The position numbers and the translations under genes are program-made. The notes under the pieces were generated by a model. The model worked only from the letters and a program-made list of their open reading frames with translations, was not told the DNA's origin and made no database searches. Below, one piece after another: positions 1 through 54,297 of a stretch of DNA of 64,000 nucleotides (its first letter is position 1; each line of letters opens with the position of its first letter). The stretch covers positions 222,258 through 286,257 of the forward strand of contig JADJMG010000007.1 in NCBI GenBank assembly GCA_016709725.1. Reading direction: 5' to 3'. Origin of the DNA: Bacteroidota bacterium. Lineage in GTDB: Bacteria; Bacteroidota; Bacteroidia; AKYH767-A; OLB10.

Positions 1-375
1 GTACCAAGAGAGAAATAATCGAAATCCTTCGTTGGTTATTAAATGTGAAAAGAAAATATCGGTAAGAATTGTGACTATAGATAAAATGAGCGTGGTAATG
101 ATACTGATAAGCCAACCTGATCCTGCAACTTCACCAAACTGCTCATTTTCGGAAGAAGCAGCAAAACGAACTAATGAGGTATGAATGATTCCAGCTCGTA
201 ACAAGTCGGCAAAAATGTATGCAGTAAGAAACATGAACCATGCTCCCATATCATCTTTGGAAAGTAATCGTGCTACTAAAGCTAAACTTCCAAATCCAAG
301 AATTGCATTGCTAATATTGCCCGCTAAGGATAAGGTATGTTTATTTTTGATGAATTTTCCTATGATTTTCGACAC
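1..375 (-). CDS. Wzx-like polysaccharide flippase (MOP superfamily). N-terminal part only; the gene runs off the window start. Probable GTG start at 375.
   Basis: Reverse-strand translation reads VSKIIGKFIKNKHTLSLAGNISNAILGFGSLALVARLLSKDDMGAWFMFLT..., which is the conserved N-terminal signature of Wzx / polysaccharide biosynthesis proteins, and it is hydrophobic. It lies directly downstream of the Wzc-like gene. It is not in the ORF table because it is partial. Confidence 0.5.
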   Translation of the reverse strand, partial: MSKIIGKFIKNKHTLSLAGNISNAILGFGSLALVARLLSKDDMGAWFMFLTAYIFADLLRAGIIHTSLVRFAASSENEQFGEVAGSGWLISIITTLILSIVTILTDIFFSHLITNEGFRLFLSWY

Positions 376-403
376 GAGGCTACAGTTTTGTGATTGTAGT
401 TCT

Positions 404-2593
404 TTACGTTCTGCGGAAGTCAAATGTTACGACTCGTTTTGCAATCCTTCGTGCATTACTTCTTCTTTTTGGGATTTCGCCAATAATTGCCTCCATTCGA
501 TCTAATTCAACAAAATTCAAGATGATAACTGGCCTTTTATCCGTTAAACTTGTAAATAAATTCAATGCCCGTGAATCAGATTCAGACCAAACACGTTCTG
601 CCGATAATAAGAATAGATTAGAATGAACACCATTAAGCAGGGTATCTGGAACAGAGAATTTGCTCAGTTCTTCTAACTCGATAATGATAACGTGATAGTC
701 TGATTTTTTAATTCCTATTTTCAAAAACCAATCTGAAATGTTCTTTGCACTGTGAAAATTTTCATCCTGTGTGTAACGATGTCCTTTAACTTTGATGGGA
801 TTTTCAAAAGTTAGATCATTTGTGCTTAAATATAATATCGAGCTGTAGTATTCAGTAAATTTATTGACTATTTTTTTTCCAATGAATGTTTTCCCTTCTC
901 CTCTTTTTATACTGGAAAGTGTGATAATGATGGGTTCATTTTCTTGATTAAAAGCTTCCTTGTTTTGAACGATAAGGTTAGACCTGAAATGTGAAAGTAT
1001 AGATTGATTTAGGCCTTCAACAATGACCATTTTATCGATGGTATTATAATTCGGAAATGCGCTTAAGAATTTTAGCCCCGTGAATTTTTCAGCGCGACTC
1101 GTACTTTGAACCGTTTTTCCCAACAGCGATTTTGCTAAGATGATCGCTAATGTGAGAATAAACGTAGCAACAAAGGCCATAATTACCAAAAAAGTTCTCT
1201 TTGAGGGTTGCGGTTTTAGAGGAAGAAAAGGGAAATCAGTTATACTTAAGTTGTTTGACATTTCTAAACTTTGCTGACGCAATTTTGCCATGTTAAGTCC
1301 ATGTAACACACTTAAATATTCTTTCTCACTGATATCAACTTCTCGTTCGATACGTTTTAAATTTGATCCAATAGGAGCGAGCTCTTTATAGATACCATCA
1401 AAACTATCTAGGCGTTTCAAAATCACTTTTAGTTTTGCCTCATTCTCATCCACAGCAAGGTAATGGCTCAGCCATTCGTTTAACATGTTAGCTCGAGGAA
1501 GACCTTCTGGAGTGTTATTCCATTTGTACTGAACTTCGATTTCGTCTTTAATCGATTTCTTTAGTTTTTCTGAATCTGCGCGGTAATTACTTAATAATTC
1601 TCGATCTTCATTGTACAATTCAGCATTCGCAATTTTATAGGTCAATTCTGATAATTGTTCGCGCAGCTTGGAGAGTTTGGCATTTACTTCGAGAATGTTT
1701 TTCTTCATCTCAATTTTTTGCTCTACTTTCTTTAATGCCGCTAGTGATGATTCTAACAATTCTTCTTGTTTTTGACGATCAGCTGTGACGTTCTCCTTTG
1801 ATTCAGCTACAAACTTGGCTTGTTCATAATAGTTGATTATTTTGTTCTGTGAGCTATAATCTCTCAGCCGATCTTCAGACTGTCGCAATTGCAAAGCAGC
1901 AAGTCGGAGTTGTTCTTCAAAATAGTTCACCACGTTATTGGTTTCTCGTCCTTTGATGCCTTTGTAGCGAGATATAACAACATCGACAATGAACTGAAGT
2001 GTTTGTTGGCATACGGCAGGATCATTGCTTTTATAGGAGATCTCAATCATGTCACTGGATTGCTTTCTCATTGCACTCATGTTCGCAGAAATCTCATCTA
2101 AACTATAAATACTGCCTGGTGAAGAGAGCAGTTGAACAATCTCATTATTTTCTTTGGCTTTTTTGAAGCTTTCAATTTTAAAAAAGGTTAGATCCTCTGA
2201 TCCCTTAACGATTAACTGCAATCGCAATTTTTCTGGAATTGACTCGCGAATTTTATTGAAATTTTCTTCTGAAAGTTCTTTGTAGCTAGGCTTCTTTATG
2301 AGCAAATGTTTTGCTAATAGTCGCATGCCTACTTCTTCAATGGATTCCCTTGATTTGATAGTGGCCATTAAATTGTCAAATGCATTGTTGACAGCAAAAT
2401 AATCTACACGATCGTTTTCGTCCGAGGTAATTCCATATCCACTTGCAATTCCAGTGTAAACTTGTGTATTGGAAACATATTCCTTCTTGGTAATACGGGT
2501 TAGAAAAAACACGACACCCGCTGTAAGCAGCGGGAATAAAACTAGAAGTTTCCAGTTTCTAAATATAATCCGAATAAATTCAAGAAGGTTCAC
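404..2593 (-). CDS. Polysaccharide chain-length determinant / tyrosine-kinase-like protein (Wzc/GumC family)
   Basis: 729 aa. N-terminal TM segment plus Wzz-like domain, a long coiled-coil region, a second TM segment, and a C-terminal P-loop segment SSIKRGEGKTF that matches a BY-kinase Walker A motif. It sits between a flippase and a sugar transferase. Confidence 0.7.
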   Translation of the reverse strand: MNLLEFIRIIFRNWKLLVLFPLLTAGVVFFLTRITKKEYVSNTQVYTGIASGYGITSDENDRVDYFAVNNAFDNLMATIKSRESIEEVGMRLLAKHLLIKKPSYKELSEENFNKIRESIPEKLRLQLIVKGSEDLTFFKIESFKKAKENNEIVQLLSSPGSIYSLDEISANMSAMRKQSSDMIEISYKSNDPAVCQQTLQFIVDVVISRYKGIKGRETNNVVNYFEEQLRLAALQLRQSEDRLRDYSSQNKIINYYEQAKFVAESKENVTADRQKQEELLESSLAALKKVEQKIEMKKNILEVNAKLSKLREQLSELTYKIANAELYNEDRELLSNYRADSEKLKKSIKDEIEVQYKWNNTPEGLPRANMLNEWLSHYLAVDENEAKLKVILKRLDSFDGIYKELAPIGSNLKRIEREVDISEKEYLSVLHGLNMAKLRQQSLEMSNNLSITDFPFLPLKPQPSKRTFLVIMAFVATFILTLAIILAKSLLGKTVQSTSRAEKFTGLKFLSAFPNYNTIDKMVIVEGLNQSILSHFRSNLIVQNKEAFNQENEPIIITLSSIKRGEGKTFIGKKIVNKFTEYYSSILYLSTNDLTFENPIKVKGHRYTQDENFHSAKNISDWFLKIGIKKSDYHVIIIELEELSKFSVPDTLLNGVHSNLFLLSAERVWSESDSRALNLFTSLTDKRPVIILNFVELDRMEAIIGEIPKRRSNARRIAKRVVTFDFRRT

Positions 2594-2594
2594 T

Positions 2595-3404
2595 TTATCT
2601 AACTAAGGTATCTAATCGCTTTCCTAATAATTTTTCAAGTTGCTGATAATTGGTATAGAAATCTTTTTTAGAAATTTCATAATCTGTTTCAGCCCTGGTA
2701 GCTATCGCAGAAACAGATGAAAAATCAGCGATGGAGATGTCTCCCTGGGAGAATTGTTTATCTGCCATATCCAACAGTAATCGACTGGTTCCGCGCGAAG
2801 CACTTGCTATCATCATCATTCGATGTGATGTTAACATATTGTTATACTCATAAACGACCTGCCGGGATACATCCATTTTGATCTTTTCCCATGTTTGTCG
2901 TCTAACTTCTAATTCTTGCTTATATACATTGATTCGACTAGTTCTTCCAAAAAGTAGAAACAACGGAACATTAACATTGAGGGCTAATCTGAATCCAGTT
3001 TGAACGGTTGCCGATTGAATGGCTTCAGGTTCTTGATTGGTGTTGTAAAATGAATTTTGATTACCTAATGGCTGTGTGGAAGTTCCAAAAACACCGTTCT
3101 GCCATTCTCGTCGAGCAAATTTTATTTGTTGTGTTCCCGCTTCAATCAAGGCATCTTGCGCTTTCATAGTTGGACTATTTAACGCAGCTATGGTAATGAG
3201 ACTATCTAAGGATACTAATTGCTCTCTTAAATCTTTGGTAAGATCAATGGTTTTGATGGATAAACTATCTCCATCCGTTACTCTTAACTCTTGATTTATC
3301 ATACTTCCATTTTCTACAGACTGAGAATACGCAATCTGAGAAATTGACAAACCTAGAAGTAGGGTGAAGGCATACAAAGGGAATTTATACTTTCCGACTA
3401 ACAT
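2595..3404 (-). CDS. Hypothetical secreted / outer-membrane protein in the EPS locus
   Basis: 269 aa with an N-terminal signal peptide. Ends 2 bp from the Wzc start, so it is in the same operon. The C-terminal half has weak TolC-like character. I do not recognise a specific family. Confidence 0.35.
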   Translation of the reverse strand: MLVGKYKFPLYAFTLLLGLSISQIAYSQSVENGSMINQELRVTDGDSLSIKTIDLTKDLREQLVSLDSLITIAALNSPTMKAQDALIEAGTQQIKFARREWQNGVFGTSTQPLGNQNSFYNTNQEPEAIQSATVQTGFRLALNVNVPLFLLFGRTSRINVYKQELEVRRQTWEKIKMDVSRQVVYEYNNMLTSHRMMMIASASRGTSRLLLDMADKQFSQGDISIADFSSVSAIATRAETDYEISKKDFYTNYQQLEKLLGKRLDTLVR

Positions 3405-3406
3405 GG

Positions 3407-4030
3407 TTATACGTTTTCGCTTTGTAACATGGCTGGAAAAGTCTTCAAAATAATCTTTAGATCTAATAAGATGGAGTGATTAAGTGCATAATTATTATCA
3501 AGTGCAATTCTTTCTTCTTCTGACATGTCTTTTTTTCCACGCTTTGTCACTTGCCATAATCCAGTTAGACCTGCAGGTGCAAGAAAACGAAATGCTCTTA
3601 TATCGGTGGTTAGTAATTCAGCTTCATAAAGTGGAAGTGGACGATTGCCAACCAGTGACATATCACCCTTAAGAATATTTATCAACTGTGGTAATTCATC
3701 AATAGAGGAGTTACGCAAGAATTTTCCGATGCGAGAAATGCGCGGATCATTTTTTGCTTTAAAAAAGATTCCTTGTTTTTCAACATCTTGCAAGAAGAAA
3801 TAGAAGTTTTCACAGAATTGTTTATTATCCGAATACATGATAGGAGAACAAGCTTTACCAAGTCTTTCGCAGTCCGGACAACTGGTAGGAATTTCAATCC
3901 TTGGTCCCTCAGCATATAAATTAAGATGGTTCATATTTCCGATACTTTTATCAGCACCGGGGATCATAGTTCTAAATTTTAATAAATCGAAAATTCTGTA
4001 ATTGGAACCAACTCGTTTTGAACGATACAT
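3407..4030 (-). CDS. Sugar phosphotransferase (bacterial sugar transferase, WbaP/EpsB-like), C-terminal catalytic fragment. Separated from its N-terminal fragment by a 1-bp homopolymer frameshift.
   Basis: Contains KFRTM...DPRISRIGKFLRNSSIDELPQLINILKGDMSLVG, the Bac_transf signature. The 5' end overlaps the upstream fragment in another frame. Confidence 0.7.
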   Translation of the reverse strand: MYRSKRVGSNYRIFDLLKFRTMIPGADKSIGNMNHLNLYAEGPRIEIPTSCPDCERLGKACSPIMYSDNKQFCENFYFFLQDVEKQGIFFKAKNDPRISRIGKFLRNSSIDELPQLINILKGDMSLVGNRPLPLYEAELLTTDIRAFRFLAPAGLTGLWQVTKRGKKDMSEEERIALDNNYALNHSILLDLKIILKTFPAMLQSENV

Positions 4031-4533
4031 AATCGCCCCTTTGATTCAAGTCGAATGGCGATAGCTGTAAGTATAAGTATGGGTGATGCCATTAAAAGAA
4101 CAACCGATGAAAAGCTGATGTCAATTAATCTTTTTACAATTAAACTTTTTCTGCTATAGAGTGAAAGCAGGGAAAATCTTCCGTGCTTATTCGTAAACAA
4201 GTGAATAACTTGAAAAACAGTCGTCACAACTTTTTCGGTTGCCACCACATCTAAGTATCCAGCATTTAAGAAATAATTAAGGTTGGAACGATCTGGTTTA
4301 TCGGAGTAACCAATAATAATAGTTTTACGAAAAGATGGTTTTGCACGAATTATTTTCATCGTATCCCCAGCAAATTCATTAGGAGTGTAAACCGGTGTTA
4401 CAAGGATGTCGGGAATATGATCGTTGCACATAAAGTCAAAAGCAGTCTCTAGATCTGCGAAACTTTTTACTTGATGCTTTGGAAATGCTTCCTCTAACTT
4501 TTCTTGCGCAGCTACTTGCGGATGGATATACAC
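3979..4533 (-). CDS. Sugar phosphotransferase N-terminal fragment, consisting of a CheY-like/receiver-like domain followed by a TM anchor
   Basis: KRLIDISFSSVVLLMASPILILTAIAIRLESKG is the canonical membrane-anchor lead-in to the Bac_transf domain. Shifting frame at the C-run at 4035-4038 gives ESKG(A/P)IMYRSKRVG...KFRTM, continuous with ORF 3407-4030. The N-terminal ~100 aa look like a receiver domain. Confidence 0.6.
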   Translation of the reverse strand: MYIHPQVAAQEKLEEAFPKHQVKSFADLETAFDFMCNDHIPDILVTPVYTPNEFAGDTMKIIRAKPSFRKTIIIGYSDKPDRSNLNYFLNAGYLDVVATEKVVTTVFQVIHLFTNKHGRFSLLSLYSRKSLIVKRLIDISFSSVVLLMASPILILTAIAIRLESKGRLCIVQNELVPITEFSIY

Positions 4534-4559
4534 TACTTTAATACTCTCTTCACTGTATA

Positions 4560-4940
4560 TTAAGCTGCTTGTGACCTTCTAAATACAGACTGTATTCTTA
4601 CTAATAATTCTTCTGGATTAAAAGGCTTTTGAAGGTAATCATCAGCTCCAGCAGTAAACGATTTTATTCGATCTTCACTCTTCTGTTTGCAGGATAACAT
4701 AATGATGGGTACTGCTTGCATTCCGGTTTGTTTTCGTATGCTCTCAGTGAGTTCATAACCATTGATCATGGGCATATCTATATCGACCAAGATTAAGTCC
4801 GCAGTATTGCCTTCTTTGAACCAACTCATGGCTTCATAGCCATTATCTTTTGTAAAAACAGTGTAGTCGTCCGATAAAAAATTGTCAAGTAGCATTCTGA
4901 TACTTAATTCATCGTCAACTACCAGTATTCTCTTTTTCAT
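4560..4940 (-). CDS. Single-domain response regulator (CheY-like receiver)
   Basis: 126 aa. ILVVDDE at the N-terminus, the phospho-acceptor region DLILVDIDMP, and a conserved K in QKPF. Confidence 0.85.
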   Translation of the reverse strand: MKKRILVVDDELSIRMLLDNFLSDDYTVFTKDNGYEAMSWFKEGNTADLILVDIDMPMINGYELTESIRKQTGMQAVPIIMLSCKQKSEDRIKSFTAGADDYLQKPFNPEELLVRIQSVFRRSQAA

Positions 4941-5051
4941 GGGTCTAGTTTATGGAATGTTTATACGTAAGTTACTTACCAAAGGTTTTGATTTTGTAAA
5001 AAGTATCTGCCTTCATGAGTTCAATCAGCGTTTTTTCTACTTCCAATTTGA

Positions 5052-5921
5052 TCATTGGCCATTTTTTATGATTTCCAATTGCGCTAATTCATCCGAAGCA
5101 TGGTCCTCTATCCATTTCATCTCATTCTCTAAATGAGTATTCCCCGACATATTCATATTGGGAATTAGTTTGTGTGAAAATTTATTCACCGAAATCCAAT
5201 CTCCTTGTTGAATAGCATGATTTAACTCGTTTATGGTAGGGGGTACGGTGTCAATAATGGCTTGAAGCATCTTGACTATAAAACTGTCTTTTCCACGTGA
5301 AAAACTTTGCAATACATGGAGACTCGCGTGTTCAAATTGAATAATGGGATCGGTAGTTGGCGGTACATCTTGGTTAGGTATGGGAATTATTTCTTCATCA
5401 ATTTCATACTTGGTGCTACCAAGCTGTTGTGTGATTAATTTATAAAGTTTATTTGAACTATAAGGTTTGAAAATAACATCATTCATTCCATACTCTTTAA
5501 ATTTTATTTCATCTCCATTTTTTGCATTTGCAGTGATGGCAATTATGGGAATGTTTTGCTGGTGCTTAGGGAATTGATTTCTGATAATATGCGTCGCGTC
5601 AATTCCATCTAAAATTGGCATTTGAATATCCATCAAAATAAGATCAAACTCTTTCCTGTGATAGAGCTCAATGGCAATCTGTCCGTTGTCTGCAATGTCT
5701 AAACTAGCACCCCATTCAGTGATTAGCTCAGAGGCAAAAAGTTGATTTACTCGATTGTCCTCTGCCAAAAGAATTTTCACACCTTTTAATGTGCCTTCAT
5801 AACTATTTTCTGTGCTTGTAGAGGCTACAATTGAATCAGGATTTGACTTTTCAAAAAGTAATTCAAAGGAAAATGAACTTCCTTTTTCATACTTGCTTTC
5901 CAAATGAATAGTGCTATTCAT
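5052..5921 (-). CDS. Hybrid sensor histidine kinase, C-terminal fragment (end of HATPase domain, receiver domain, HPt domain)
   Basis: Starts at HLESKYEKGSSFSFEL, which is the end of a HATPase_c domain. It continues ILLAEDNRVNQ...DLILMDIQMP (receiver) and ends in an HPt-like tail. It is contiguous with ORF 5921-7480 after a 1-bp frameshift. Confidence 0.8.
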   Translation of the reverse strand: MNSTIHLESKYEKGSSFSFELLFEKSNPDSIVASTSTENSYEGTLKGVKILLAEDNRVNQLFASELITEWGASLDIADNGQIAIELYHRKEFDLILMDIQMPILDGIDATHIIRNQFPKHQQNIPIIAITANAKNGDEIKFKEYGMNDVIFKPYSSNKLYKLITQQLGSTKYEIDEEIIPIPNQDVPPTTDPIIQFEHASLHVLQSFSRGKDSFIVKMLQAIIDTVPPTINELNHAIQQGDWISVNKFSHKLIPNMNMSGNTHLENEMKWIEDHASDELAQLEIIKNGQ

Positions 5922-7480
5922 TAGGTAAGTAAGTCTTTCACGATTGTCAAACCAAGTCCAAGGCCACCATGCATACGACTTGATTCATCATTGGCTTGTG
6001 TAAAGGCTTCAAATATGTTTTGGAGTTTACTGGCTTGAATACCTATTCCAGTGTCAGAAACAGAGAAACGAATATGGCATTCCGTATTGGTTTCAGCAAT
6101 GAGGTCGGCCGAGAATACAACTTTTCCCGTTGGTGTAAATTTAATGGCATTGCTTATTAAATGCATTAACACTTGATTCAATTTGTTAACGTCACCAATC
6201 AAGCATGGATTAATTTCGTCATCAATAAAACTAATTAACTCAATTTTCTTGTGCTGCGCATTTGTCTTGAAAGTATAATTGAGATTATAAAACAAATTTG
6301 TTAAATCGAAAGGGGCGTTACGAAGTTTACTTCTTCCTTCTTTGAGTTTGCTAAAATCAAAAATATCATTAAATAATAGAAGCAAATTCTCAGTACTTTG
6401 CTTAATAGATTGTGCATATTTATACTGCTGATCATTCAGCGGTGATTTAAGTAAAAGCTTAGTGAGTCCAACGATTCCATTCATGGGCGTCTTAATTTCA
6501 TGACTCATGTTGGCAAGAAATAGTTCCTTAATTTGATTGGATTCTTCTGCTGATTGCTTGGCTTTCTTTAAGTCATTCTCAGCTATTAGTCGTTTGGTGA
6601 TATCTTGTGAGAAGGCAATAACATAATCGTCTTCTCCTTCTTCCGTAACCTTGTAGTTTTTAAAAAGCAAACTGAGTTGATGCCCCGACTTACTTTGTAC
6701 TTTTAGAATTCCTTCTTGGACTTGATTCGATTGTAAATTTGACAAATATTCCTTTTGAAATTGTTCTCGATATTCTATCGGCATAAAATCTGAAATTCGT
6801 TTTCCAATAAGATCATGTGATTCATACTCTAAGATTTCACATCCTGCTGGATTCATAGAAAGTATTGTGCCTGTCATATCGTGTGTACAGATAATGGCCT
6901 GACTATAATTGATTAAATCCCGATTCCTTTTTTCACTCTTAATTATTTCCTGCTCGTAAATTTTTCGGGTTGTTACATCATTGAAAAGGATTAAATAAGC
7001 CGTTTTCTTCGAGTTAGGATTGATCATGGGAGTAGCGGTTCCTTCTAACCAAATAGATTGTCCATTCTTGTTCAAGTATCTAATTTCACCTTGCCATGTT
7101 TTACCATTTAAGAGCGACCTTTTAGCCAGTTCAATCGTGGAATGTTGATCTTTTGAAAGTAAATCCCAAGTATAAAGGTTAGTGATCTCCTCCGATTTTA
7201 AATTGAGCAGTAATTCTAATTTTCGATTGATAGATACAATTTTTCCTGACTTGTCAAGGATAGCCGACAAACTCGATTCATTGATGGCATGTTTAATATT
7301 TGCATTTTCAACGCTTGATTCTTCCTTGAATAATTGAAAAATATTGTCAATGGTTTTATTCTTGATATCATCCTTGACATAGGATGCTGATATGGCCTCC
7401 AAAAAACTCCCCATTTCTGGATGTGTAGGTAGATGGTTGCCAAAATACTTAGCAAGTTGTCGTTGTAGTAAAGGATGCAT
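5921..7480 (-). CDS. Hybrid sensor histidine kinase, N-terminal fragment (PAS domains, HisKA, HATPase)
   Basis: Two PAS-like segments, H-box ANMSHEIKTPMNGIVGL, N/G boxes ISNAIKFT...DTGIGI...GGLGLGL. It ends ...TIVKDLLT* where homologs read VKRL..L.GGTIHLES. Adding one A to the run gaaaga gives VKRLTYLMNSTIHLES, continuous with the next ORF. Confidence 0.85.
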   Translation of the reverse strand: MHPLLQRQLAKYFGNHLPTHPEMGSFLEAISASYVKDDIKNKTIDNIFQLFKEESSVENANIKHAINESSLSAILDKSGKIVSINRKLELLLNLKSEEITNLYTWDLLSKDQHSTIELAKRSLLNGKTWQGEIRYLNKNGQSIWLEGTATPMINPNSKKTAYLILFNDVTTRKIYEQEIIKSEKRNRDLINYSQAIICTHDMTGTILSMNPAGCEILEYESHDLIGKRISDFMPIEYREQFQKEYLSNLQSNQVQEGILKVQSKSGHQLSLLFKNYKVTEEGEDDYVIAFSQDITKRLIAENDLKKAKQSAEESNQIKELFLANMSHEIKTPMNGIVGLTKLLLKSPLNDQQYKYAQSIKQSTENLLLLFNDIFDFSKLKEGRSKLRNAPFDLTNLFYNLNYTFKTNAQHKKIELISFIDDEINPCLIGDVNKLNQVLMHLISNAIKFTPTGKVVFSADLIAETNTECHIRFSVSDTGIGIQASKLQNIFEAFTQANDESSRMHGGLGLGLTIVKDLLT

Positions 7481-7636
7481 ATCGTATATTCTTACTTCTT
7501 CTACGATTTGACTCGAAAATTGTTACTCTAAAATGAATCAATAAATGATCTCAATCACCACCGAAATTTAAAACCAATTTAAATTTCTGTGTGACAATAA
7601 AATTTATATCTTATTGAAAATGAATAAGATGTATAT

Positions 7637-8449
7637 CTATAGAATCGCGTGTCTTATTTTAAGCAATTGTTGTAAAAGCGTTTCAACCTTATCCAATGCA
7701 ATCATATTTGCACCATCACTTAATGCTTCTGCAGGATTCGGGTGTGTCTCTAAGAAAATACCATCAGCGCCCGTAGCAATAGCAGCCTTTGCAATAGTAG
7801 CGATAAGCTCAGGACGACCTCCAGTAACACCTGAACTTTGATTAGGTTGCTGAACACTATGCGTAATGTCCATCACAACAGGGTATCCAAAATTCTTCAT
7901 TGTGGGAATTCCTCTGTAGTCAACAACTAAATCTGAATAACCTAAAGACGTTCCTCTTTCAGTAAGCATGATGTTACTATTTCCTGAATTAAAAATTTTC
8001 TCCACCGCAAATTTCATTGCTTCAGGAGAAGAAAATTGTCCTTTTTTAACATTTACAACTTTATGAGTTTTCGCAGCAGCAACCAACAAGTCTGTTTGTC
8101 GACATAAAAAGGCAGGAATTTGCAATATATCAACATACTCTGCTGCAATGGCTGCTTCATGACTTTCGTGAATGTCGGTAAGCAAGGGTAGATTTAACTC
8201 TTTTCCCACCTTGCTTAAAATTCCCAAAGCAAGTTCATCGCCCATACCGGTATAAGAATCGATACGTGTACGATTCGCTTTACGAAATGAAGCTTTGAAA
8301 ATAAAAGGGATGCCTAAACGATTAGTGATTTGCTGCAATTTGTGTGCTGTTTGATACGTAATTTCTTCACTTTCCACTACACAAGTACCAGCGATTAAGA
8401 AAAAACTTTTAGTATCGGTATTTTTTAGATGGGGGATATGTGGATACAT
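7637..8449 (-). CDS. kdsA: 3-deoxy-8-phosphooctulonate synthase (KDO8P synthase)
   Basis: 270 aa. IAGTCVVESEE, FKASFRKANRT, QIPAFLCRQTDL, TERGTSLGYSDLVVDYRG, DITHSVQQP: collinear with KdsA. Confidence 0.9.
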   Translation of the reverse strand: MYPHIPHLKNTDTKSFFLIAGTCVVESEEITYQTAHKLQQITNRLGIPFIFKASFRKANRTRIDSYTGMGDELALGILSKVGKELNLPLLTDIHESHEAAIAAEYVDILQIPAFLCRQTDLLVAAAKTHKVVNVKKGQFSSPEAMKFAVEKIFNSGNSNIMLTERGTSLGYSDLVVDYRGIPTMKNFGYPVVMDITHSVQQPNQSSGVTGGRPELIATIAKAAIATGADGIFLETHPNPAEALSDGANMIALDKVETLLQQLLKIRHAIL

Positions 8450-8561: not shown

Positions 8562-9752
8562 CTATTCTACAAAAAGAACCAAACCCTTAAGATACTCTGC
8601 TTCGGGATGATAAATGCTAACAGGATGGTCGGCCGGTTGGGTTAGTTGATGCAAAATTTTGACTTCTCGTTGAGCTTGAATGGCCGATTGAAATATTATT
8701 TTTCGGAACAACTCTTTATCTACAGCTTGCGAGCAACTAAATGTAAACAATAATCCACCTGACTTAATATGCTTCAATCCTTCGGTATTTAAATTGCGAT
8801 AACCAATCATCGCATTACTTACTTGATTTAAATGCTTGGCAAATGCTGGTGGATCAAGTATGAGAATATCATATTGCATTTCTAATTGGCGCAAGTATGA
8901 CATAACGTCGGATGTACTCGATTGATGTTTGCCTTGAAATTGATTCAATGCTACGTTAAACTCCAGTCCTTCTATTGCTCGAGCAGAACTATCCACTGAA
9001 TGAACTTCAGTTGCACCTCCTTGCAAAGAAGCCAGTGAAAATCCTCCTGTATAAGCAAAGGTATTTAACACTGTTTTTCCCTTGGAATAGTGCTTAAGTA
9101 ATTGTCGATTATCACGCTGGTCTAAGAAGAATCCAGTCTTCTGACCATTTACAAAGTCAACAGAAAGCTTTATTCCATGTTCAAGAACGGTTTCATTGGC
9201 ATGATAGTTTTCTCTTTGTGCAAGAAAAATATTATCAGGTTTTTCATGCCCATGTTTGGCCATAGTTTCTGCACTTTTATCGTAAACAGCGTCAATGAAA
9301 GGCATCTCCTCTAAAATTAATTTAGCTAAAAAGGATTTAATCGATTGCATTCCTAAGCTATAACTTTGAAGCACCACAGTGTTTCCATACACATCAGCAA
9401 TAAGTCCGGGCATCCCATCTCCCTCACCATGAATTAGTCGAAAGGAATTAGTTTGAGTATTGGGAAAAGTTAAAACATGACGCAGCGACAAACATTTTTT
9501 AATCTTTTCTCTAAAGAATAGATCATCAACAACTTTTTCCTCGAAATCAAAACAACGAATACTGATCGTACCACGTTGAAAATGACCTGTGGCTAAATAT
9601 TCTCCTTTTGCTGAATGTACTTGAACCAAATCGCCATTATTTAGTTCTGCAGGTTCAACTGCAATGGCGCCACTGAAAACCCAAGGATGCTTTTGTAAGA
9701 GTGATCTTTCTTTGCCTTTCTTTAATTGGATAATAGGATAGGGGAGCGACAT
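8562..9752 (-). CDS. rlmI: 23S rRNA (cytosine1962-C5)-methyltransferase RlmI (PUA domain plus class I SAM methyltransferase)
   Basis: 396 aa, collinear with E. coli RlmI/YccW: KGKERSLLQKHPWVFSGAI, RLIHGEGDGMPGLIADVYG, TGFFLDQRDNR, LNTFAYTGGFS, ILDPP, FTFSCS, ADHPV. Confidence 0.85.
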   Translation of the reverse strand: MSLPYPIIQLKKGKERSLLQKHPWVFSGAIAVEPAELNNGDLVQVHSAKGEYLATGHFQRGTISIRCFDFEEKVVDDLFFREKIKKCLSLRHVLTFPNTQTNSFRLIHGEGDGMPGLIADVYGNTVVLQSYSLGMQSIKSFLAKLILEEMPFIDAVYDKSAETMAKHGHEKPDNIFLAQRENYHANETVLEHGIKLSVDFVNGQKTGFFLDQRDNRQLLKHYSKGKTVLNTFAYTGGFSLASLQGGATEVHSVDSSARAIEGLEFNVALNQFQGKHQSSTSDVMSYLRQLEMQYDILILDPPAFAKHLNQVSNAMIGYRNLNTEGLKHIKSGGLLFTFSCSQAVDKELFRKIIFQSAIQAQREVKILHQLTQPADHPVSIYHPEAEYLKGLVLFVE

Positions 9753-9777
9753 ACTTTACGGTTCGAACGAATCTTTT

Positions 9778-12120
9778 TTAGAAGGATACAACTTGAAATG
9801 TCTTACTAAACATATGCTTGCTTTCACTTTGAATTCGTGCAACAAATACACCATTTTGTCCCTTGTGGGGTGTCCAAATGAAAGGCTGGTTACTCTTGAT
9901 TTGAGTGTTCAAAATATTTTTTCCTTCTGCATTGAATATTTCTAAGGTGTAGAATTGACTTTCTATTCCTTCGGATTTAAAATTCACATTTCCAGTAGAT
10001 GGATTGGGCCAAATTTGCAAATCCATTTGGTTTGGGTTAGATGGATTAACCAACCCCGTCGTGAAATCTCGATAACCCATAACATATTCTCCTTTCTTGA
10101 GTGTATCAATAGTCATACTTCCAACTTTGTCGAATTTATTTCCAGTGGTTACCGTGTAACCGTTCACAACTTGCCAATCTTCCTTTACATTGCTTCGATA
10201 AAACAAAACTAAGCTGTCTTCGTTCCCTGTAATTAAATTATTGTCGAGATAACCTGCCGTTGCATTGGTAGACCCGTTGTAATTTAAAGTAACCTTGGCT
10301 AAAAATCCAGGTTTGAAAATTCCATCAAATTTCCAATAACGATAATCACTTAATCGAATGCCCGGATTAGTACTAGTGGTTTTAAATGGATCTGGTTTTA
10401 CCCAATGAAGTTCAGCTCGTACAGTGCTCGTATCTCCTCCAGTAGCAATTACATTTACATTGCTGTAGGTGTCAAGAAAGGAATTTGTTCCCGTGCTGAA
10501 GAGTTTTTTCTCGTAATCAGAAATAGCATCGCTCATATGATCGTTTCGATCAATTGAATACCAAGTAGGATTAAAGCTTAAGGTAATAGGAAATGAATTT
10601 GTGGTATTGTCCATTAATAAAATGAGTGTCGTGTCATTTACACCATCTGTAAAGTTTACTTCGACTTTCATTTCATAAATAGCAGAATTTCCTTTACTCT
10701 TCTGACGTGAATGCAAAATATATTGATGGGTTGCTAGGTTGACCACTTCTAATGAATCAATATCAAAATGCGGAAAGCCCGGTGTGAATACCCAATCATC
10801 AAAGAAACGATTCATGTTGATACCACTACTCGCTGTAAGTTCATCTCTCAAATGATAACTGTTGACGGAGGTATTGCCTCTGTTATTCATGAAATCTCTA
10901 CATCCTTCAAAGAAGAGTGAATCCTGCATGTAATAGCGCAACGTATGTGCTACATCAGCTCCCTTATTATATACAGTAGGCCCATACGTATGTGCATGCG
11001 GGATATTGATGAGAGGCAAGTATCCATTGTCGGTAATATGCGCAAACTGCAAAACTTTTCGATGGTTAGTTCGAAACCAAGTTCTATAAGCATCAGTCCC
11101 ATATAATTTTTCGGTGGTATAGGCTTCATTAAAACTTGCAAAACCTTCGTTAAGCCACATGTCTCCTTCCGATTCACACGTAGTCCAATTCCCCCACCAC
11201 ATATGCGCTAATTCATGTGCCCATAATGTTTCATAGCTGAGCGATCCATTGATGTAAGCAGTACCAATATGTATACTGGTTGCATGTTCCATAGCTCCAG
11301 AGTTAAAAGGAATCAAACAATATCCTACTTTTTGAAATGGATAAGGGCCATATGCTTGAATATAATGCGATAAAACCGAATCTAAGTTTTGAAATGTTGC
11401 ACTTACATTGTTTGAATCGTTAGGCATGCAAGCAATTTCTACTGGAATGTTTTGATAATTTCTACTCCACGTGTAATAGGGAGCAATAGCTACGCTTGCT
11501 AAATAAGTAGGAATAGGAGTTGTTAAATTCCAATTCCAAGTATTATTTCCATTGGCATGTAACGTGACACCCTGCAAAATCCCATTACAAAATGCTTTGT
11601 ATCCAGCAATAGTAGTGATGTGAAAAGTGTAGGTAGCTCGATCCGTAAACACATCGTTTGCAGGAAACCACGCCCTTCCAAATACATGCGGATCGCTGCC
11701 AAATCCTACTCCTAAGTTAAACGCATAATTAAGGTTGAAATAAAATCCACCCCATCCAGAAGGATCTCCCTGTGGAATGCCGTGATAATAAATGGTAACA
11801 ATTTCTGAAGTGATGTTGTCAACCGGATTTAGTAAAGTGATATCAAGTGTAGTATCGTTGTATGTATACGTAAGGGTGTTTGCGTTTTGATCAAGAATGG
11901 AATCAATGATCAATGATAAAAGTGATACCTCAAGCGTAGTTATACTTTGTATTGAATTAGATTTGAATTCCAATTGTGCATGTGCTTCTATACTTTTACT
12001 AGGAAAATTAATGGTGTCAAAACTGATATCATAATGAACCACATCGAGCAAGTTGGATTGAGCATAAGTTGGCAAACTAATTCCTAGAATCAGTAGTAGC
12101 GTGTAGAGTAGTTTTGTCAT
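9778..12120 (-). CDS. M1-family zinc aminopeptidase (aminopeptidase N-like) with a T9SS C-terminal sorting domain. An alternative upstream start exists at 12135.
   Basis: Signal peptide, the gluzincin motif HELAHMWWGNW...NEGFASF, and a C-terminal ~80 aa Por/T9SS CTD (LQIWPNPSTGNVNFK...). Confidence 0.8.
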   Translation of the reverse strand: MTKLLYTLLLILGISLPTYAQSNLLDVVHYDISFDTINFPSKSIEAHAQLEFKSNSIQSITTLEVSLLSLIIDSILDQNANTLTYTYNDTTLDITLLNPVDNITSEIVTIYYHGIPQGDPSGWGGFYFNLNYAFNLGVGFGSDPHVFGRAWFPANDVFTDRATYTFHITTIAGYKAFCNGILQGVTLHANGNNTWNWNLTTPIPTYLASVAIAPYYTWSRNYQNIPVEIACMPNDSNNVSATFQNLDSVLSHYIQAYGPYPFQKVGYCLIPFNSGAMEHATSIHIGTAYINGSLSYETLWAHELAHMWWGNWTTCESEGDMWLNEGFASFNEAYTTEKLYGTDAYRTWFRTNHRKVLQFAHITDNGYLPLINIPHAHTYGPTVYNKGADVAHTLRYYMQDSLFFEGCRDFMNNRGNTSVNSYHLRDELTASSGINMNRFFDDWVFTPGFPHFDIDSLEVVNLATHQYILHSRQKSKGNSAIYEMKVEVNFTDGVNDTTLILLMDNTTNSFPITLSFNPTWYSIDRNDHMSDAISDYEKKLFSTGTNSFLDTYSNVNVIATGGDTSTVRAELHWVKPDPFKTTSTNPGIRLSDYRYWKFDGIFKPGFLAKVTLNYNGSTNATAGYLDNNLITGNEDSLVLFYRSNVKEDWQVVNGYTVTTGNKFDKVGSMTIDTLKKGEYVMGYRDFTTGLVNPSNPNQMDLQIWPNPSTGNVNFKSEGIESQFYTLEIFNAEGKNILNTQIKSNQPFIWTPHKGQNGVFVARIQSESKHMFSKTFQVVSF

Positions 12121-14848: not shown

Positions 14849-16006
14849 TTACATCCAATTTGAAAACAAAAGGATGAGCAAAATGCCAGCAATATCCACA
14901 AAAAAACCAACTAAAACCATCTCTCTAACTTTAATATGCCCACTTGAATATACGATGGTATTGGGAGCCGTTGCGATGGGTAGCATGAAGCCAAGGGAAG
15001 CTGATAATGCTGCAGGTACCAATAGGAGTTTGGGATCAATGTCGGAAACCATTTGTAGCGAAATTAAAATGGGCATCATTAACTGAATACTGGCCACATT
15101 GGATGCAAACTCAGAAATGAGAGTCACAATCACACAAATAATCAAAATAGTTAGTAAAATTGGGACATCATTTACTGCATTTAGATGTTGAGCTAACCAA
15201 GTACTTAGTCCCGAAAGTTCAAATCCCTTCGCCAAAGCAAATCCACTTCCAAAGAGTAGTATAATCTCATAAGGAAGTTTTGAGGCTTCTTTCCAAGTAA
15301 GAAGTGCTCTTCCTTTTTCAGTTTGAGATGGAATTAAGAAGAGTAGTAAAGCCATGCTGATGGCAATGGTGCTATCTTGAATTTGAAGTGGGTGCGGGAA
15401 AAGATGAGTCCATCCCTGTAGATGAAAGCTACCAACTTCTAAATCGGCTCGTGTGAGCCAGAGAAGTGCTGTACTAAAGAATATAATCCCCACAATTTTC
15501 TCATCAATACTCCAATTTCCTAGTTTTAAAAATTCAGTTTTGAATCCACCTGTTTCAAATGATTTTAAATTAAGCTTTCGAACAAAGAAAAAACGGATCA
15601 ACCACCATGCGCATATTAATAGTGAGAATGCAAAAGGCAGAGCAAAAATCATCCATCCAGCAAAAGTAATGGGATCAGAACTAGCGTATTGCTCATTATA
15701 AGCTCTATAAAAAATCATATTAGTAGGAGTTCCAACCAAAGTTGCTAATCCACCAATGCTGGATGAATAGGCGAGGCCTATGAGTAAAGCAGAAGAGAGT
15801 TTTCGATGTGTTTCCGCTGAATCTATATGGTTTCTTAACTGATGGATAACGGCTAGTACAGCCGATAAAAGCATCATCACGGTGGCAGTATTAGAAATCC
15901 ACATGGAAATTAAAAATCCACTGAGCATAATACCAAATAATACGCGAGATGCATTATGCCCCGATAAGGATAAAATTCCAAGAGCTAGTCTTCGATGCAA
16001 CCCCAT
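14849..16006 (-). CDS. DASS/SLC13-family (divalent anion:Na+ symporter, ArsB/NhaD superfamily) transporter, C-terminal fragment
   Basis: 385 aa of polytopic membrane protein. Contiguous with ORF 15985-16323 if one C is added to the run at 16001-16004, giving AIEKW-GLHRRLALGIL. Confidence 0.65.
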   Translation of the reverse strand: MGLHRRLALGILSLSGHNASRVLFGIMLSGFLISMWISNTATVMMLLSAVLAVIHQLRNHIDSAETHRKLSSALLIGLAYSSSIGGLATLVGTPTNMIFYRAYNEQYASSDPITFAGWMIFALPFAFSLLICAWWLIRFFFVRKLNLKSFETGGFKTEFLKLGNWSIDEKIVGIIFFSTALLWLTRADLEVGSFHLQGWTHLFPHPLQIQDSTIAISMALLLFLIPSQTEKGRALLTWKEASKLPYEIILLFGSGFALAKGFELSGLSTWLAQHLNAVNDVPILLTILIICVIVTLISEFASNVASIQLMMPILISLQMVSDIDPKLLLVPAALSASLGFMLPIATAPNTIVYSSGHIKVREMVLVGFFVDIAGILLILLFSNWM

Positions 16007-16323
16007 TTTTCAATGGCGAACGCTAAAAGAAATCCTCCTATGAATAAAAACAAAATAGGATCCATGTATTGAGCTGACACTTCCTTGATGTCAACAATAC
16101 CACTTGAAGGAAGAAGAATAAAAGGAATAAAAGAAGAAACGGCAATGTGAACGGCTTCTGTCAACCACCATAATGCAACCCAACCGGTGATACCAATCAT
16201 CACCATCATTAGCGGTGATTTGGGGATCGGAGAGGGAAGCAAACAAAATAAAACAAAAAACAACGGACCCGCAATCACCGCCCAGCCCTTATTGGGAGAA
16301 GTAGTGATTTGCTCGTTGTGCAT
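15985..16323 (-). CDS. DASS/SLC13-family transporter, N-terminal fragment
   Basis: 112 aa, hydrophobic. Ends AIEKWGCIED* immediately before the MGLHRRLALGI start of the downstream fragment. Confidence 0.6.
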   Translation of the reverse strand: MHNEQITTSPNKGWAVIAGPLFFVLFCLLPSPIPKSPLMMVMIGITGWVALWWLTEAVHIAVSSFIPFILLPSSGIVDIKEVSAQYMDPILFLFIGGFLLAFAIEKWGCIED

Positions 16324-17659: not shown

Positions 17660-19252
17660 TTATCTTGAAATCGCCATATTTAAATCGAAGGCGCATTTAA
17701 AATGTCCTTCCGGACAAGCCTTATGACCGTGTAATCCACACGGTCGACAGGATAAATTCAATACTTCTACAATCTTTTTATCATCTGACAAAGGTCCAAA
17801 TCCAAAAGCAGGAACCGTACTGCAATAATAGGCAGTCACGGGAGCGTTCATCGCAGATGCAATATGCATCGGAGCTGAATCATTTACAAAATTTCGTTTG
17901 GCGTCTTTCATTAAAGCAGCGGTTTGTAAAAAGCTTAATTTACCCGCAAGGGTTTTTACATTTTCGTTTTTAGATAGTTCTTGAATGGCTAAACATTCGT
18001 TTTTATCAACAGGACCACCAAGCAAATAAATATTAGCTTCTTTATCTATATCGTGAAGCGAAGAAATTAATTGAATCCATTTCGCAGCGGGAACTTGCTT
18101 TGTAAACCAAACGGAAGTAGGTGCAATGCAATAGTAAGTTTTCCTTTTTAATTCCTGTACAGATGAATAATCGCTTGCAGAAGGATAAAGAATTGGTTTT
18201 ACGGATTCATTCGCGCCCAAAGATTTCATCAATCTTAAATTGCGTACTGTTTCATGAGTTTCAGTTTCACCCGCAATATCGTGCTCGATTTTCTGAGTAA
18301 ATAAAAATGAAAAAGGATTCTTCTTAAATCCAATTCTGTCTTTAGCACCACTTAATCCGGTAAGAATTCCAGTTGCCGCAAAACGTTGAATATTGATGAC
18401 AACGTCATATTTCTCTTTTCGAATTTGAAAGAGGAGAGTCCACAAGTTTTTTTGCTTATTTTTCTGTTTGTTCCAGATAAGAATACTACTTATTCCAATA
18501 AAATTTTGCAATAATCCTTCATTTCCTTTTCGTACCAATACATCCAACTGCGCATGCGGAAAACATCGATGCGCCTCCTGAATTAAGGGAGTCGCTAAAA
18601 TGACATCTCCAATAAAAGCAGTTTGAATGATTAATATTTTCACTGGCTTACAAGGAAGAAGGTGTCGCTCGTTAAAACGTTCAACAAATCGTATTAACAT
18701 TTGTCGCTGTTTCTTTGGACTGTTTATACCAATAAACTCTTGGTATAGTTCTTCATCCCGTAGTATTAAAATACTTTCTAATGAAGCCACAGAATACTCC
18801 ACGAATTCTCCCTCTTGTAAGTCAAGAATATGTGGAATAGTTTCTGTATTTTTTTCTGTGGAAACTGGAGCAGAAGCAGCTCTGCGGATGGGATAACTTT
18901 CTACAAAATAACACAGTTGTCCAACTACTGTTACTTTATGATCATAACCTTTTCGTTGGATGTATAGGGTTCCATCATCTACAAAAGCATAAACGCTATC
19001 ATAAGGTAAACTTTGTTTTACTTTGTTTTCATTGATGAAGAATAGGCTATCACCCCGAAACCATTTTTTTACATGCGATGTTTTTTCTCCGTTGATAAGA
19101 AGTTGTGTGGTTTGGATGGAAGGACTTTGCTCTTGCAATTCACTTAAATGCAAATAAACACCACTTGGAAATGAGTTTCTACTGTTTGTTGAAGTTTGGG
19201 AATAGAGTAGGGTAGGAAGAAAAAATGCTACTGCGAATACTATACTTTTCAT
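17660..19252 (-). CDS. GT9 glycosyltransferase (ADP-heptose:LPS heptosyltransferase-like) fused to a ~200-aa N-terminal domain that has a signal peptide. An alternative start exists at 19279.
   Basis: The C-terminal ~330 aa read KILIIQTAFIGDVILATPLIQ..., ...LLGGPVD... and ...CRPCGLHGHKACPEGHFKC, the GT9 signature. The N-terminal 200 aa start with MKSIVFAVAFFLPTLLYSQ and are a separate domain I do not recognise. There is a 7-bp gap to the anti-sigma gene. Confidence 0.7.
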   Translation of the reverse strand: MKSIVFAVAFFLPTLLYSQTSTNSRNSFPSGVYLHLSELQEQSPSIQTTQLLINGEKTSHVKKWFRGDSLFFINENKVKQSLPYDSVYAFVDDGTLYIQRKGYDHKVTVVGQLCYFVESYPIRRAASAPVSTEKNTETIPHILDLQEGEFVEYSVASLESILILRDEELYQEFIGINSPKKQRQMLIRFVERFNERHLLPCKPVKILIIQTAFIGDVILATPLIQEAHRCFPHAQLDVLVRKGNEGLLQNFIGISSILIWNKQKNKQKNLWTLLFQIRKEKYDVVINIQRFAATGILTGLSGAKDRIGFKKNPFSFLFTQKIEHDIAGETETHETVRNLRLMKSLGANESVKPILYPSASDYSSVQELKRKTYYCIAPTSVWFTKQVPAAKWIQLISSLHDIDKEANIYLLGGPVDKNECLAIQELSKNENVKTLAGKLSFLQTAALMKDAKRNFVNDSAPMHIASAMNAPVTAYYCSTVPAFGFGPLSDDKKIVEVLNLSCRPCGLHGHKACPEGHFKCAFDLNMAISR

Positions 19253-19285
19253 GGTGCAAAGGTAAACGCTTAAAAGCAAAAAGAA

Positions 19286-54045: not shown

Positions 54046-54297
54046 CTTGATCTCCTTTTTTCGTGTTCTTCGAGGTCGTGGATGGGAATCATTAGAAGAT
54101 GTTGGATTTTAGTCGCGAGGCTTCGCGATTAGATTTTAGATTGATTTTAGTCACGAGGAGATTTATTGGACTGCTTAGAACATAGACATCGCTCCCGCTA
54201 ATTGATTTTACAAGAATACAATTATAGAAACACAAATTTAGTATTATTGGTTGATGATTGATTGTATTAATGAAAAAATTATCTGCTATATATATAC

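Follow-up and report, generated by a model that had tools for sequence, protein, structure and literature searches.

The window analyzed here is a stretch of 64,000 nucleotides (nt) from an uncultured Bacteroidota bacterium (contig JADJMG010000007.1 of assembly GCA_016709725.1, forward-strand positions 222,258 to 286,257), and positions 1-7480 of this window carry, on the minus strand, the head of an exopolysaccharide operon of the Wzx/Wzy-dependent type, with its regulatory genes. The locus encodes a small phosphoglycosyl transferase (PGT), the enzyme predicted to start the polymer, with a receiver-like domain fused to its N-terminus; the gene directly upstream encodes a free-standing response regulator that consists of a single receiver domain. 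The same pair recurs in other Bacteroidota, and its likely role in the control of polymer initiation is the main subject of this report.

A polysaccharide locus with its own phosphorelay genes

Read in the direction of the minus strand, a hybrid histidine kinase is followed by the regulator, which contains a receiver (REC) domain only, the Bac_transf-type PGT, an OEP/TolC-like protein, a Wzz/GNVR-type co-polymerase and the N-terminus of a Wzx flippase (Table 1). The packing along this series is tight—with gaps of 31, 17, 2 and 1 nt and, at the last junction, an overlap of 20 nt. The conspecific contig L001 shows what lies beyond the window start: the full wzx gene is followed there by a Wzy_C polymerase gene, two GT2 genes and one GT4 gene. 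Because Wzy_C and glycosyltransferase genes come after wzx in conspecific contigs, we assigned the operon to the Wzx/Wzy-dependent type of polysaccharide locus. On the other side, kdsA and unrelated genes are located upstream of the kinase, and no exact match to the Bacteroidetes -7 promoter motif TAnnTTTG was found in the 156-nt gap that precedes it. The gene order had been proposed in an earlier note drawn up from the DNA letters, and the open reading frames (ORFs) and their Pfam domains bear it out, together with the proposal that a polysaccharide locus shares its orientation with a phosphorelay of its own.

The reading frames of the kinase and the transferase are interrupted in the window, and both proteins are described here in repaired form. 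In the repaired kinase, Pfam recognized two PAS domains, HisKA (1.5e-18), HATPase_c (2.1e-24) and Response_reg (6e-23), and the enzyme is predicted to be a cytoplasmic, soluble kinase of the hybrid type. At its C-terminus, the window protein alone gave a weak match to the Pfam model for HPt (E 0.22, 12 bits vs. a cut-off of 24.6), and no HPt was detected when the C-terminus alone was compared with Pfam and the PDB. We also examined the C-termini of syntenic kinases, six of six of which match Pfam Hpt at E<=1 (best 1.4e-10). A profile of these C-termini matches the solved HPt domains of 3MYF (6.9e-9), RcsD (1SR2, 7.5e-6) and BarA (3IQT among the matches, 1.8e-4), and the HPt histidine is invariant among them. 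These comparisons suggest, at the level of profiles, that the kinase ends in a divergent HPt domain. The domain composition given in the earlier note was confirmed for PAS (present twice), HisKA, HATPase_c and REC, with HPt retained on profile-level support and not on a Pfam match of this protein. Taken as a set, the components of a complete His-Asp-His-Asp relay are encoded at the locus, with HisKA, the kinase REC domain and the free regulator being clear and HPt assigned from profiles.

The free regulator is a canonical receiver along its whole length. Response_reg covers residues 5-116 at 101 bits, no output domain is present, and the active-site residues are complete (D9, D10, D53, S83 and K105). 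The conspecific contigs read encode the regulator with the identical amino-acid sequence, and it is present, unchanged, on many contigs from metagenomes and metagenome-assembled genomes (MAGs). Against the NCBIfam model for EpsW (NF041866), a single-domain regulator of Myxococcus xanthus, the protein scored 81 bits (E 5.6e-23) and did not reach the curated cut-off of 200 bits; judged by this comparison it is no equivalog or orthologue of EpsW, and it would be EpsW-like in its action at most. Public records label the protein 'response regulator transcription factor' or 'OmpR family' despite the absence of a DNA-binding domain.

A receiver-like domain on a small phosphoglycosyl transferase

The catalytic part of the transferase is readily placed. 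Once repaired, the protein scores 194 bits with Bac_transf (PF02397; cut-off 27), in a match that spans positions 1-178 of the 179 in the profile, and its homologues at 63-94% identity are all intact and all 378 amino acids (aa) long. An AlphaFold2 (AF2) model was built on an alignment of 60 sequences, with a mean predicted local distance difference test (pLDDT) score of 81.5, and the catalytic C-terminal two thirds of this model match PglC (Foldseek E 8e-15, target TM 0.86). In the same 60 sequences, S153 of the re-entrant helix motif MASPIL is found in at least 90% and P154 is invariant; D282 of the catalytic pair in SIDELPQ is nearly invariant and E283 invariant; and the NRP of the NRPLP motif is invariant as well. 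The protein, at a total length of 378 aa, contains neither a four-helix bundle nor a DUF as in WbaP, and its scores against the NCBIfam equivalog models (WcaJ, WbaP, EpsZ and others) all stayed below the cut-offs. Both the sequence and the modeled structure indicate that the enzyme is a small, PglC-like monotopic PGT (monoPGT), predicted to initiate the polymer on undecaprenyl phosphate. The catalytic fold, the Ser-Pro re-entrant helix and the Asp-Glu pair are shared with Campylobacter PglC (PDB 8E37, 8G1N), to which the transferase adds an N-terminal receiver-like domain of about 120 aa and an extra segment with four invariant cysteines. This segment is located between KFRTM and DPRIS in the catalytic domain and spans about 60 aa, a size estimated from the Pfam match (237 residues vs. 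a profile of 179 positions); its four cysteines, arranged as CxxC, C and C, are conserved in 60/60 aligned family members and may form a metal site. To our knowledge, no such segment has been described for PglC-type enzymes.

For the N-terminal domain (hereafter, N-domain), searched over transferase residues 1-133, Pfam returned no match even at E<=10, either for the window protein or for P0007, and profile and fold methods were therefore needed. Full-length relatives at 43-48% identity carry PF00072 in this region (e.g., P0049, 1.5e-13). A receiver hidden Markov model (HMM), which we built from 46 adjacent free regulators, recognized the N-domains with a best value of 2e-26; most members of the close subfamily gave 1e-5 or better, and the window species 0.0025. 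When N-domains of the close subfamily were aligned with the adjacent regulators using hhalign, the probability reached 97.7% (E 1.9e-12) over 100 columns, extending from beta1 to beta5. The AF2 model shows five beta-alpha units in the N-domain, with a pLDDT of about 90 over most of it, and Foldseek matched them to the receivers of PhoB, DivK, Spo0F, PhoP and FrzS at a target TM of about 0.7 (0.65-0.78) and a root-mean-square deviation of about 3.3 Å. A modeled helix spans residues 102-166, and its pLDDT drops below 50 at residues 121-129, in the linker between the last receiver helix and the re-entrant helix. Sequence profiles and the predicted structure agree that the N-domain is a genuine receiver homologue with a receiver fold, in line with the CheY-like domain that the earlier note had placed ahead of the membrane anchor.

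The residues on which receiver phosphorylation depends were then compared with those of the adjacent regulator. The acidic pair (D9 and D10 in the regulator) is replaced by His-Pro in the N-domain, and the phospho-acceptor position (D53) is occupied by a proline within DILVTPVY. The equivalent of S83 is retained as serine; that of K105 varies with the aligner between Thr, Val and a gap, and six residues are deleted before beta5. Across 111 N-domains of the family, the acceptor position holds Glu in 48, Asp in 28, Pro in nine and other residues in the remainder. The canonical set of five residues is complete in 0/111 N-domains vs. 38/46 adjacent regulators, and Asp and Lys do not occur together in a single one of the 111. 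On the strength of these alignments, the N-domain is a conserved, well-folded pseudo-receiver that cannot act as a phospho-acceptor. The alignment to a receiver HMM suggested in the earlier note thus yielded homology, with the phospho-acceptor Asp and the Lys both missing. The alternative offered there—that such a domain would be just a diverged cytoplasmic linker—does not hold for a domain that is conserved and folded as a pseudo-receiver.

To place the pair in a broader context, we searched one genome per species with the family alignment and compared the 80 loci returned; these were chosen by PGT similarity alone and annotated with the window's own proteins as queries. A gene for a REC-only protein of roughly 120-135 aa lies directly upstream of the PGT gene in 46 of the 50 Bacteroidota loci. 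This number comprises every locus whose PGT carries the N-domain (42/42), as well as four of the eight loci with a short PGT devoid of it, and none of the 30 loci from other phyla, which encode large WbaP-like PGTs, has such a gene (0/30). The association between N-domain and regulator (Fisher p = 3e-4) is descriptive only, as the loci are phylogenetically non-independent. The genes for regulator and PGT overlap or are no more than 50 nt apart in most loci, and genes for OEP, co-polymerase, Wzx and Wzy follow downstream in many. Among the Bacteroidota genera represented are Dyadobacter, Flavobacterium, Sediminibacterium, Hymenobacter, Spirosoma, Rufibacter, Chitinophaga, Pedobacter, Mucilaginibacter, Algoriphagus, Prevotella and Bacteroides. 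Cultured strains that carry the module include Flavobacterium sp. NRK F7, Rufibacter hautae, Dyadobacter flavalbus and Chitinophaga cymbidii. The search for the same architecture in related genomes that the earlier note had called for was, in this sense, productive, with 42 Bacteroidota loci combining an N-domain PGT and an upstream REC-only gene. As a separate observation, the MAG of a sister species (L013, JADKIC010000027.1, positions 9569..11103) contains a truncated regulator gene and a transferase split into two ORFs.

Neighboring genes and interrupted reading frames

The gene that follows the transferase encodes a protein with one OEP repeat and an N-terminal signal-like segment, for which the NCBIfam TolC model gave a value of 4.1e-9, below its cut-off. 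Described in the earlier note as a small secreted protein, it is identified here as an outer-membrane protein of the OEP/TolC family at half the usual size. The gene is conserved downstream of the PGT, between PGT and co-polymerase, in many Bacteroidota loci. No exporter of the Wza/Poly_export type was called within 10 kb downstream in L001, and the OEP-like protein may provide an alternative outer-membrane exit for the polymer.

The co-polymerase reaches the Wzz model exactly at its cut-off (25.5 bits) and the GNVR model below it (18.3 bits, E 0.0022, against a cut-off of 27.7). Its C-terminal 177 aa have no Pfam match and no related sequence in the PDB, and, where a BY-kinase would have Walker A, A' and B motifs, they contain a P-loop-like GEGKT motif only; the tail 'RRSNARRIAKRVVTFDFRRT' is free of tyrosine. 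With neither kinase similarity nor a tyrosine cluster, we rejected the label of BY-kinase for this protein, so that the kinase part of the earlier Wzc-like assignment is unsupported. The cytoplasmic C-terminal domain of about 180 aa (404..940) may instead be a degenerate or novel partner domain.

Table 1. Features of the polysaccharide locus and window-specific insertions and deletions, in window coordinates
Feature	Position	Strand	Evidence or remark
Hybrid histidine kinase	4972..7480 once repaired; here ORFs 7480..5921 and 5921..5052	-	Pfam domains; 836 aa in conspecifics
Single-domain response regulator, 126 aa	4560..4940	-	Pfam Response_reg 4.9e-29
Initiating small monotopic PGT	3407..4542; here ORFs 4533..3979 and 4030..3407	-	Bac_transf 1.8e-57 after repair; 378 aa in conspecifics
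Pseudo-receiver N-domain of transferase, residues 1 to ~118	4189..4542	-	hhalign, REC HMM, Foldseek, residue tables
Predicted re-entrant membrane helix of transferase, ~residues 139-166	4045..4128	-	AF2 secondary structure; Ser-Pro conservation
Four-Cys cluster of transferase (C222, C225, C232, C244)	3812..3880	-	Alignment of 60 family members
Half-size OEP/TolC-family outer-membrane protein, 269 aa	2595..3404	-	Pfam OEP 5.4e-21
Polysaccharide co-polymerase, 729 aa	404..2593	-	Wzz at gathering threshold; weak GNVR
Wzx flippase N-terminus, runs off window start	1..423	-	Pfam Polysacc_synt 1.3e-7; 468 aa in conspecifics
Window-specific deletions, 1-2 nt	4039, 5067, 5924, 7591, 16004, 16863, 18655, 28997, 51510, 54061, 58107		Against all conspecific contigs compared
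Window-specific insertions, 1-2 nt	50729, 59599		Against all conspecific contigs compared

The breaks in the kinase and transferase frames had not been remarked in the earlier note. They were located against a reference set of six conspecific contigs with the same cluster (L001-L006, 98.9-99.6% nucleotide identity), in all of which the transferase is intact at 378 aa; the kinase is 836 aa long in L001-L005 and was called at 797 aa in L006. In the window, a 1-nt deletion at about position 4039 (G5 to G4) splits the transferase. Another, at about 5067 (A7 to A6), lies near the kinase C-terminus, inside the HPt region; a third, at about 5924, falls within HATPase_c of the kinase at a non-homopolymer site, and a fourth, at about 7591, is intergenic. 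Moreover, the transferase gene begins with ATT in the window (4542..4540) vs. ATG in its relatives, and a GTG three codons downstream, at 4533, is usable as a start. The 207-aa fragment of the transferase is identical to NCBI protein MBK7682800.1.

Over the roughly 45 kb compared, about 12 window-specific indels were found, nearly all of them 1-nt deletions, mostly in homopolymers, and supported by all relatives covering each site. Several affect genes far from the polysaccharide locus. The deletion at 16004 splits the gene for a 491-aa Na/sulfate symporter (14849..16323), and a 2-nt deletion at about 18655 fuses a 204-aa gene and a 327-aa Glyco_transf_9 (GT9) gene, which are separate in relatives, into an artificial ORF of 539 aa (17660..19279, minus strand). 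An AraC-like gene and a gene for a T9SS protein (type IX secretion) are truncated by the deletions at 54061 and 58107, respectively. Substitutions private to the window are mostly synonymous (25 vs. 13) and look like real strain variation; the counts for the kinase (three synonymous, one non-synonymous) and the PGT (three and two) are too small to judge relaxed selection.

Two further regions of the window deserve mention. From about 59,647 onward, the conspecific contigs L010 and L012 (positions 1..8025) diverge from the window and carry genes for MksE/JetB, DUF3375, an SbcC-like ATPase and a 1280-aa helicase—a cluster that looks like a Wadjet/Mks-type island. Contig L011 tracks the window up to about 61,750, and the position around 59,650 is a strain-variable spot. 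Elsewhere, an ORF of 2494 aa extends over 21301..28785 on the plus strand; its counterpart in relatives has a Por_Secre_tail (T9SS) signal, and in L007 it is split into parts of 2277 and 227 aa.

Control of polymer initiation: proposed mechanism and alternatives

An experimental precedent for control at this step comes from M. xanthus, where the single-domain regulator EpsW, once phosphorylated, binds the PGT EpsZ and activates it post-translationally, the two proteins being in proximity in vivo (Schwabe et al. 2025, mBio, PMC12802240). EpsZ belongs to the large monoPGTs, with four transmembrane helices and a DUF, and dimer stabilization is its proposed mode of activation; the monoPGT of the window is small and PglC-like and has a pseudo-receiver fused to it. 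Likewise, EpsW receives its input from the CheA-type kinase DifE, in contrast to the PAS-containing hybrid kinase with a probable HPt domain found here, and the regulator gene in the window is directly adjacent to that of the PGT. Because the REC-only/PGT pair is conserved in Bacteroidota and the EpsW–EpsZ system offers an experimental example, control at the level of the enzyme is plausible for the window as well. The suggestion in the earlier note that a stand-alone regulator would fit protein-protein control gains plausibility on the same grounds, and its description of the regulator as lacking an output domain was correct (126 aa, REC only).

The mechanism that we propose would begin at the soluble hybrid kinase with its two PAS domains, which may run a His-Asp-His relay through its own REC domain and the divergent HPt and end at the 126-aa regulator. 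Once phosphorylated, the regulator—having no DNA-binding domain—would act post-translationally on the small monotopic PGT, the enzyme that would commit undecaprenyl phosphate to the polymer. By analogy with EpsW and EpsZ, we infer that the regulator would bind the enzyme directly. The pseudo-receiver N-domain could then serve as its docking partner, in a receiver:pseudo-receiver heterodimer formed through the alpha4-beta5-alpha5 face, and the signal might pass along the long helix that links the last receiver helix to the re-entrant helix in the membrane. The docking site on the pseudo-receiver and the direction of the effect are our own proposals, chosen as the most likely arrangement. As a whole, this explanation—the head of an exopolysaccharide operon in which a phosphorylated free regulator controls the PGT post-translationally by docking on its pseudo-receiver, with the frame breaks being assembly errors—is the best available, and we give it a probability of about 55%. 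More tentatively, the same arrangement may represent a two-receiver switch operating across Bacteroidota, in which the phosphorylated regulator would heterodimerize with a permanently unphosphorylatable, PGT-fused receiver and alter the enzyme by way of the helix leading into the re-entrant helix. We consider this extension less likely than not. Several observations weigh against our explanation, including the clustering of the frame breaks considered below. The loci compared share ancestry and are not phylogenetically independent. The kinase adjoins the pair in only about seven of the 50 loci, so that the input kinase is no fixed part of the module. Furthermore, the regulator is found next to a short PGT without N-domain in four loci, so that the catalytic domain may be the regulator's point of contact and the N-domain may have a different role. 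Finally, small monoPGTs have been reported to be monomeric (PMC12802240), and the dimer-stabilizing mechanism of EpsZ therefore need not transfer to them.

The most direct alternative, put forward in the earlier note, is that the fused N-domain is itself a working receiver, phosphorylated by the kinase or its HPt domain and switching the enzyme directly. Its homology and fold would suit such a role, as would the kinase, its putative HPt and the regulator encoded beside the transferase, and Asp occupies the acceptor position in about a quarter of the family, where Glu is the commonest residue. In the window protein, however, the acidic pocket is absent, the acceptor is a proline and the lysine has been lost; none of the 111 N-domains has the full set of residues or even Asp plus Lys, and Pfam Response_reg gave no match at E<=10. 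Loss of the acidic-pocket residues is also the outcome that the earlier note had itself named as counting against its proposal. Phosphorelay gating through the fused domain as a receiver is, for these reasons, very improbable. A different alternative takes the conserved neighborhood as a matter of co-expression only, with the regulator serving as a phosphate sink or acting on some other partner (e.g., the co-polymerase or Wzx/Wzy), and the pseudo-receiver being a constitutive structural or self-association module without signal input. Single-domain regulators are known as phosphate sinks in branched relays, and the presence of the regulator beside the four short PGTs that have no N-domain would fit this picture. 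Yet regulator and PGT genes are immediately adjacent, and often overlapping, in 46/50 loci from many genera while their other neighbors vary; the N-domain was never seen without the regulator (42/42); and direct activation of a PGT by a regulator has been demonstrated experimentally (PMC12802240). We consider co-expression alone a doubtful explanation, albeit one with real substance, and continue to favor post-translational control by the docked regulator.

The remaining alternative concerns the frame breaks. Since similar 1-nt deletions break unrelated genes across the window and both genes are intact in five or six independent conspecific assemblies, we judged the breaks to be, most likely, assembly errors of the long-read kind and not biology; the long-read origin is suggested by the error pattern and by the accession series. 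If the lesions were real, the strain would have inactivated its kinase and transferase and would be a non-producer, or a phase variant generated by slippage in the G5 and A7 runs. Three frameshifts and an ATG-to-ATT substitution are concentrated in this one pair of genes, with four indels in 3.6 kb vs. about 0.2 per kb elsewhere, and the mostly synonymous private substitutions look real, so that the change in the start codon is probably real too. The clustering of four lesions in two genes with linked functions leads us to retain inactivation as an improbable outcome that still deserves some weight. It is opposed by the similar deletions that hit the symporter, the GT9 fusion, the AraC-like gene and the T9SS protein, and by a conspecific metagenome contig (L012) that has assembly-private indels of its own. 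In addition, the GTG located three codons downstream can take the place of the missing ATG, and no excess of non-synonymous changes is seen in either the kinase or the transferase. As for phase variation, the G5 and A7 runs are rather short for a contingency locus and show no polymorphism in the other assemblies; considering also the similar deletions in unrelated genes, we judged it unlikely.

In comparison with other known systems, the Rcs system (RcsC, RcsD and RcsB, with WcaJ and colanic acid) places a hybrid kinase and an HPt relay over a Wzx/Wzy polysaccharide, an arrangement that is probable for the window too. Rcs works transcriptionally, however, through the DNA-binding RcsB, whereas the terminal regulator in the window has no DNA-binding domain. 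Receiver folds without a working acceptor site, used for protein-protein contacts, are also represented by FrzS of M. xanthus (PDB 2I6F), the N-domain of KaiA and the plant PRR/TOC1 proteins, none of which is known to be fused to a membrane enzyme that initiates glycans or paired with a dedicated canonical regulator gene. A survey based on sequence-similarity networks by O'Toole, Imperiali and Allen in 2021, cited in PMC12802240, reportedly noted receiver fusions of small monoPGTs. These fusions reportedly have the same order as here, i.e., a REC-like domain, the re-entrant helix and the Bac_transf catalytic domain; as far as we can tell, they are listed as regulatory domains, whereas in our set the phosphorylation site is incomplete in 111/111 and a canonical free regulator is paired with the enzyme. 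That small monoPGTs can carry receiver domains is stated in PMC12802240 as well.

Receiver–PGT fusions have thus been listed before, and activation of a PGT by a free regulator was shown in 2025, so that the system is already known in outline. Nothing specific to a regulator–PGT module of Bacteroidota was found in the searchable literature. Judged against that literature, three aspects appear to be new: the fused receiver is dead throughout the family examined, a canonical free regulator is encoded immediately upstream whenever the N-domain is present, and the pair is widespread in Bacteroidota, on a small and not a large monoPGT. At the level of databases, our results call for two corrections, as the REC-only regulator is misnamed a 'transcription factor' and the transferase of this genome has been deposited as fragments. 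The broader question is how bacteria ration a lipid carrier that is scarce and for which several glycan pathways compete. A direct mechanism leading from a regulator to a PGT was first reported as recently as 2025, and the PGT concerned was a large one of myxobacteria. The pattern described here spans Bacteroidota from soil, aquatic and gut habitats, including Flavobacterium, Dyadobacter, Pedobacter, Chitinophaga, Hymenobacter, Prevotella and Bacteroides, and points to another form of this principle, one open to testing. If the two-receiver switch proved true, it would constitute a widespread regulatory module for small monoPGTs, mechanistically unlike the dimer stabilization proposed for EpsZ—with relevance, through the control of biofilm and capsule formation in Bacteroidota, for the ecology of wastewater, plant and gut environments.

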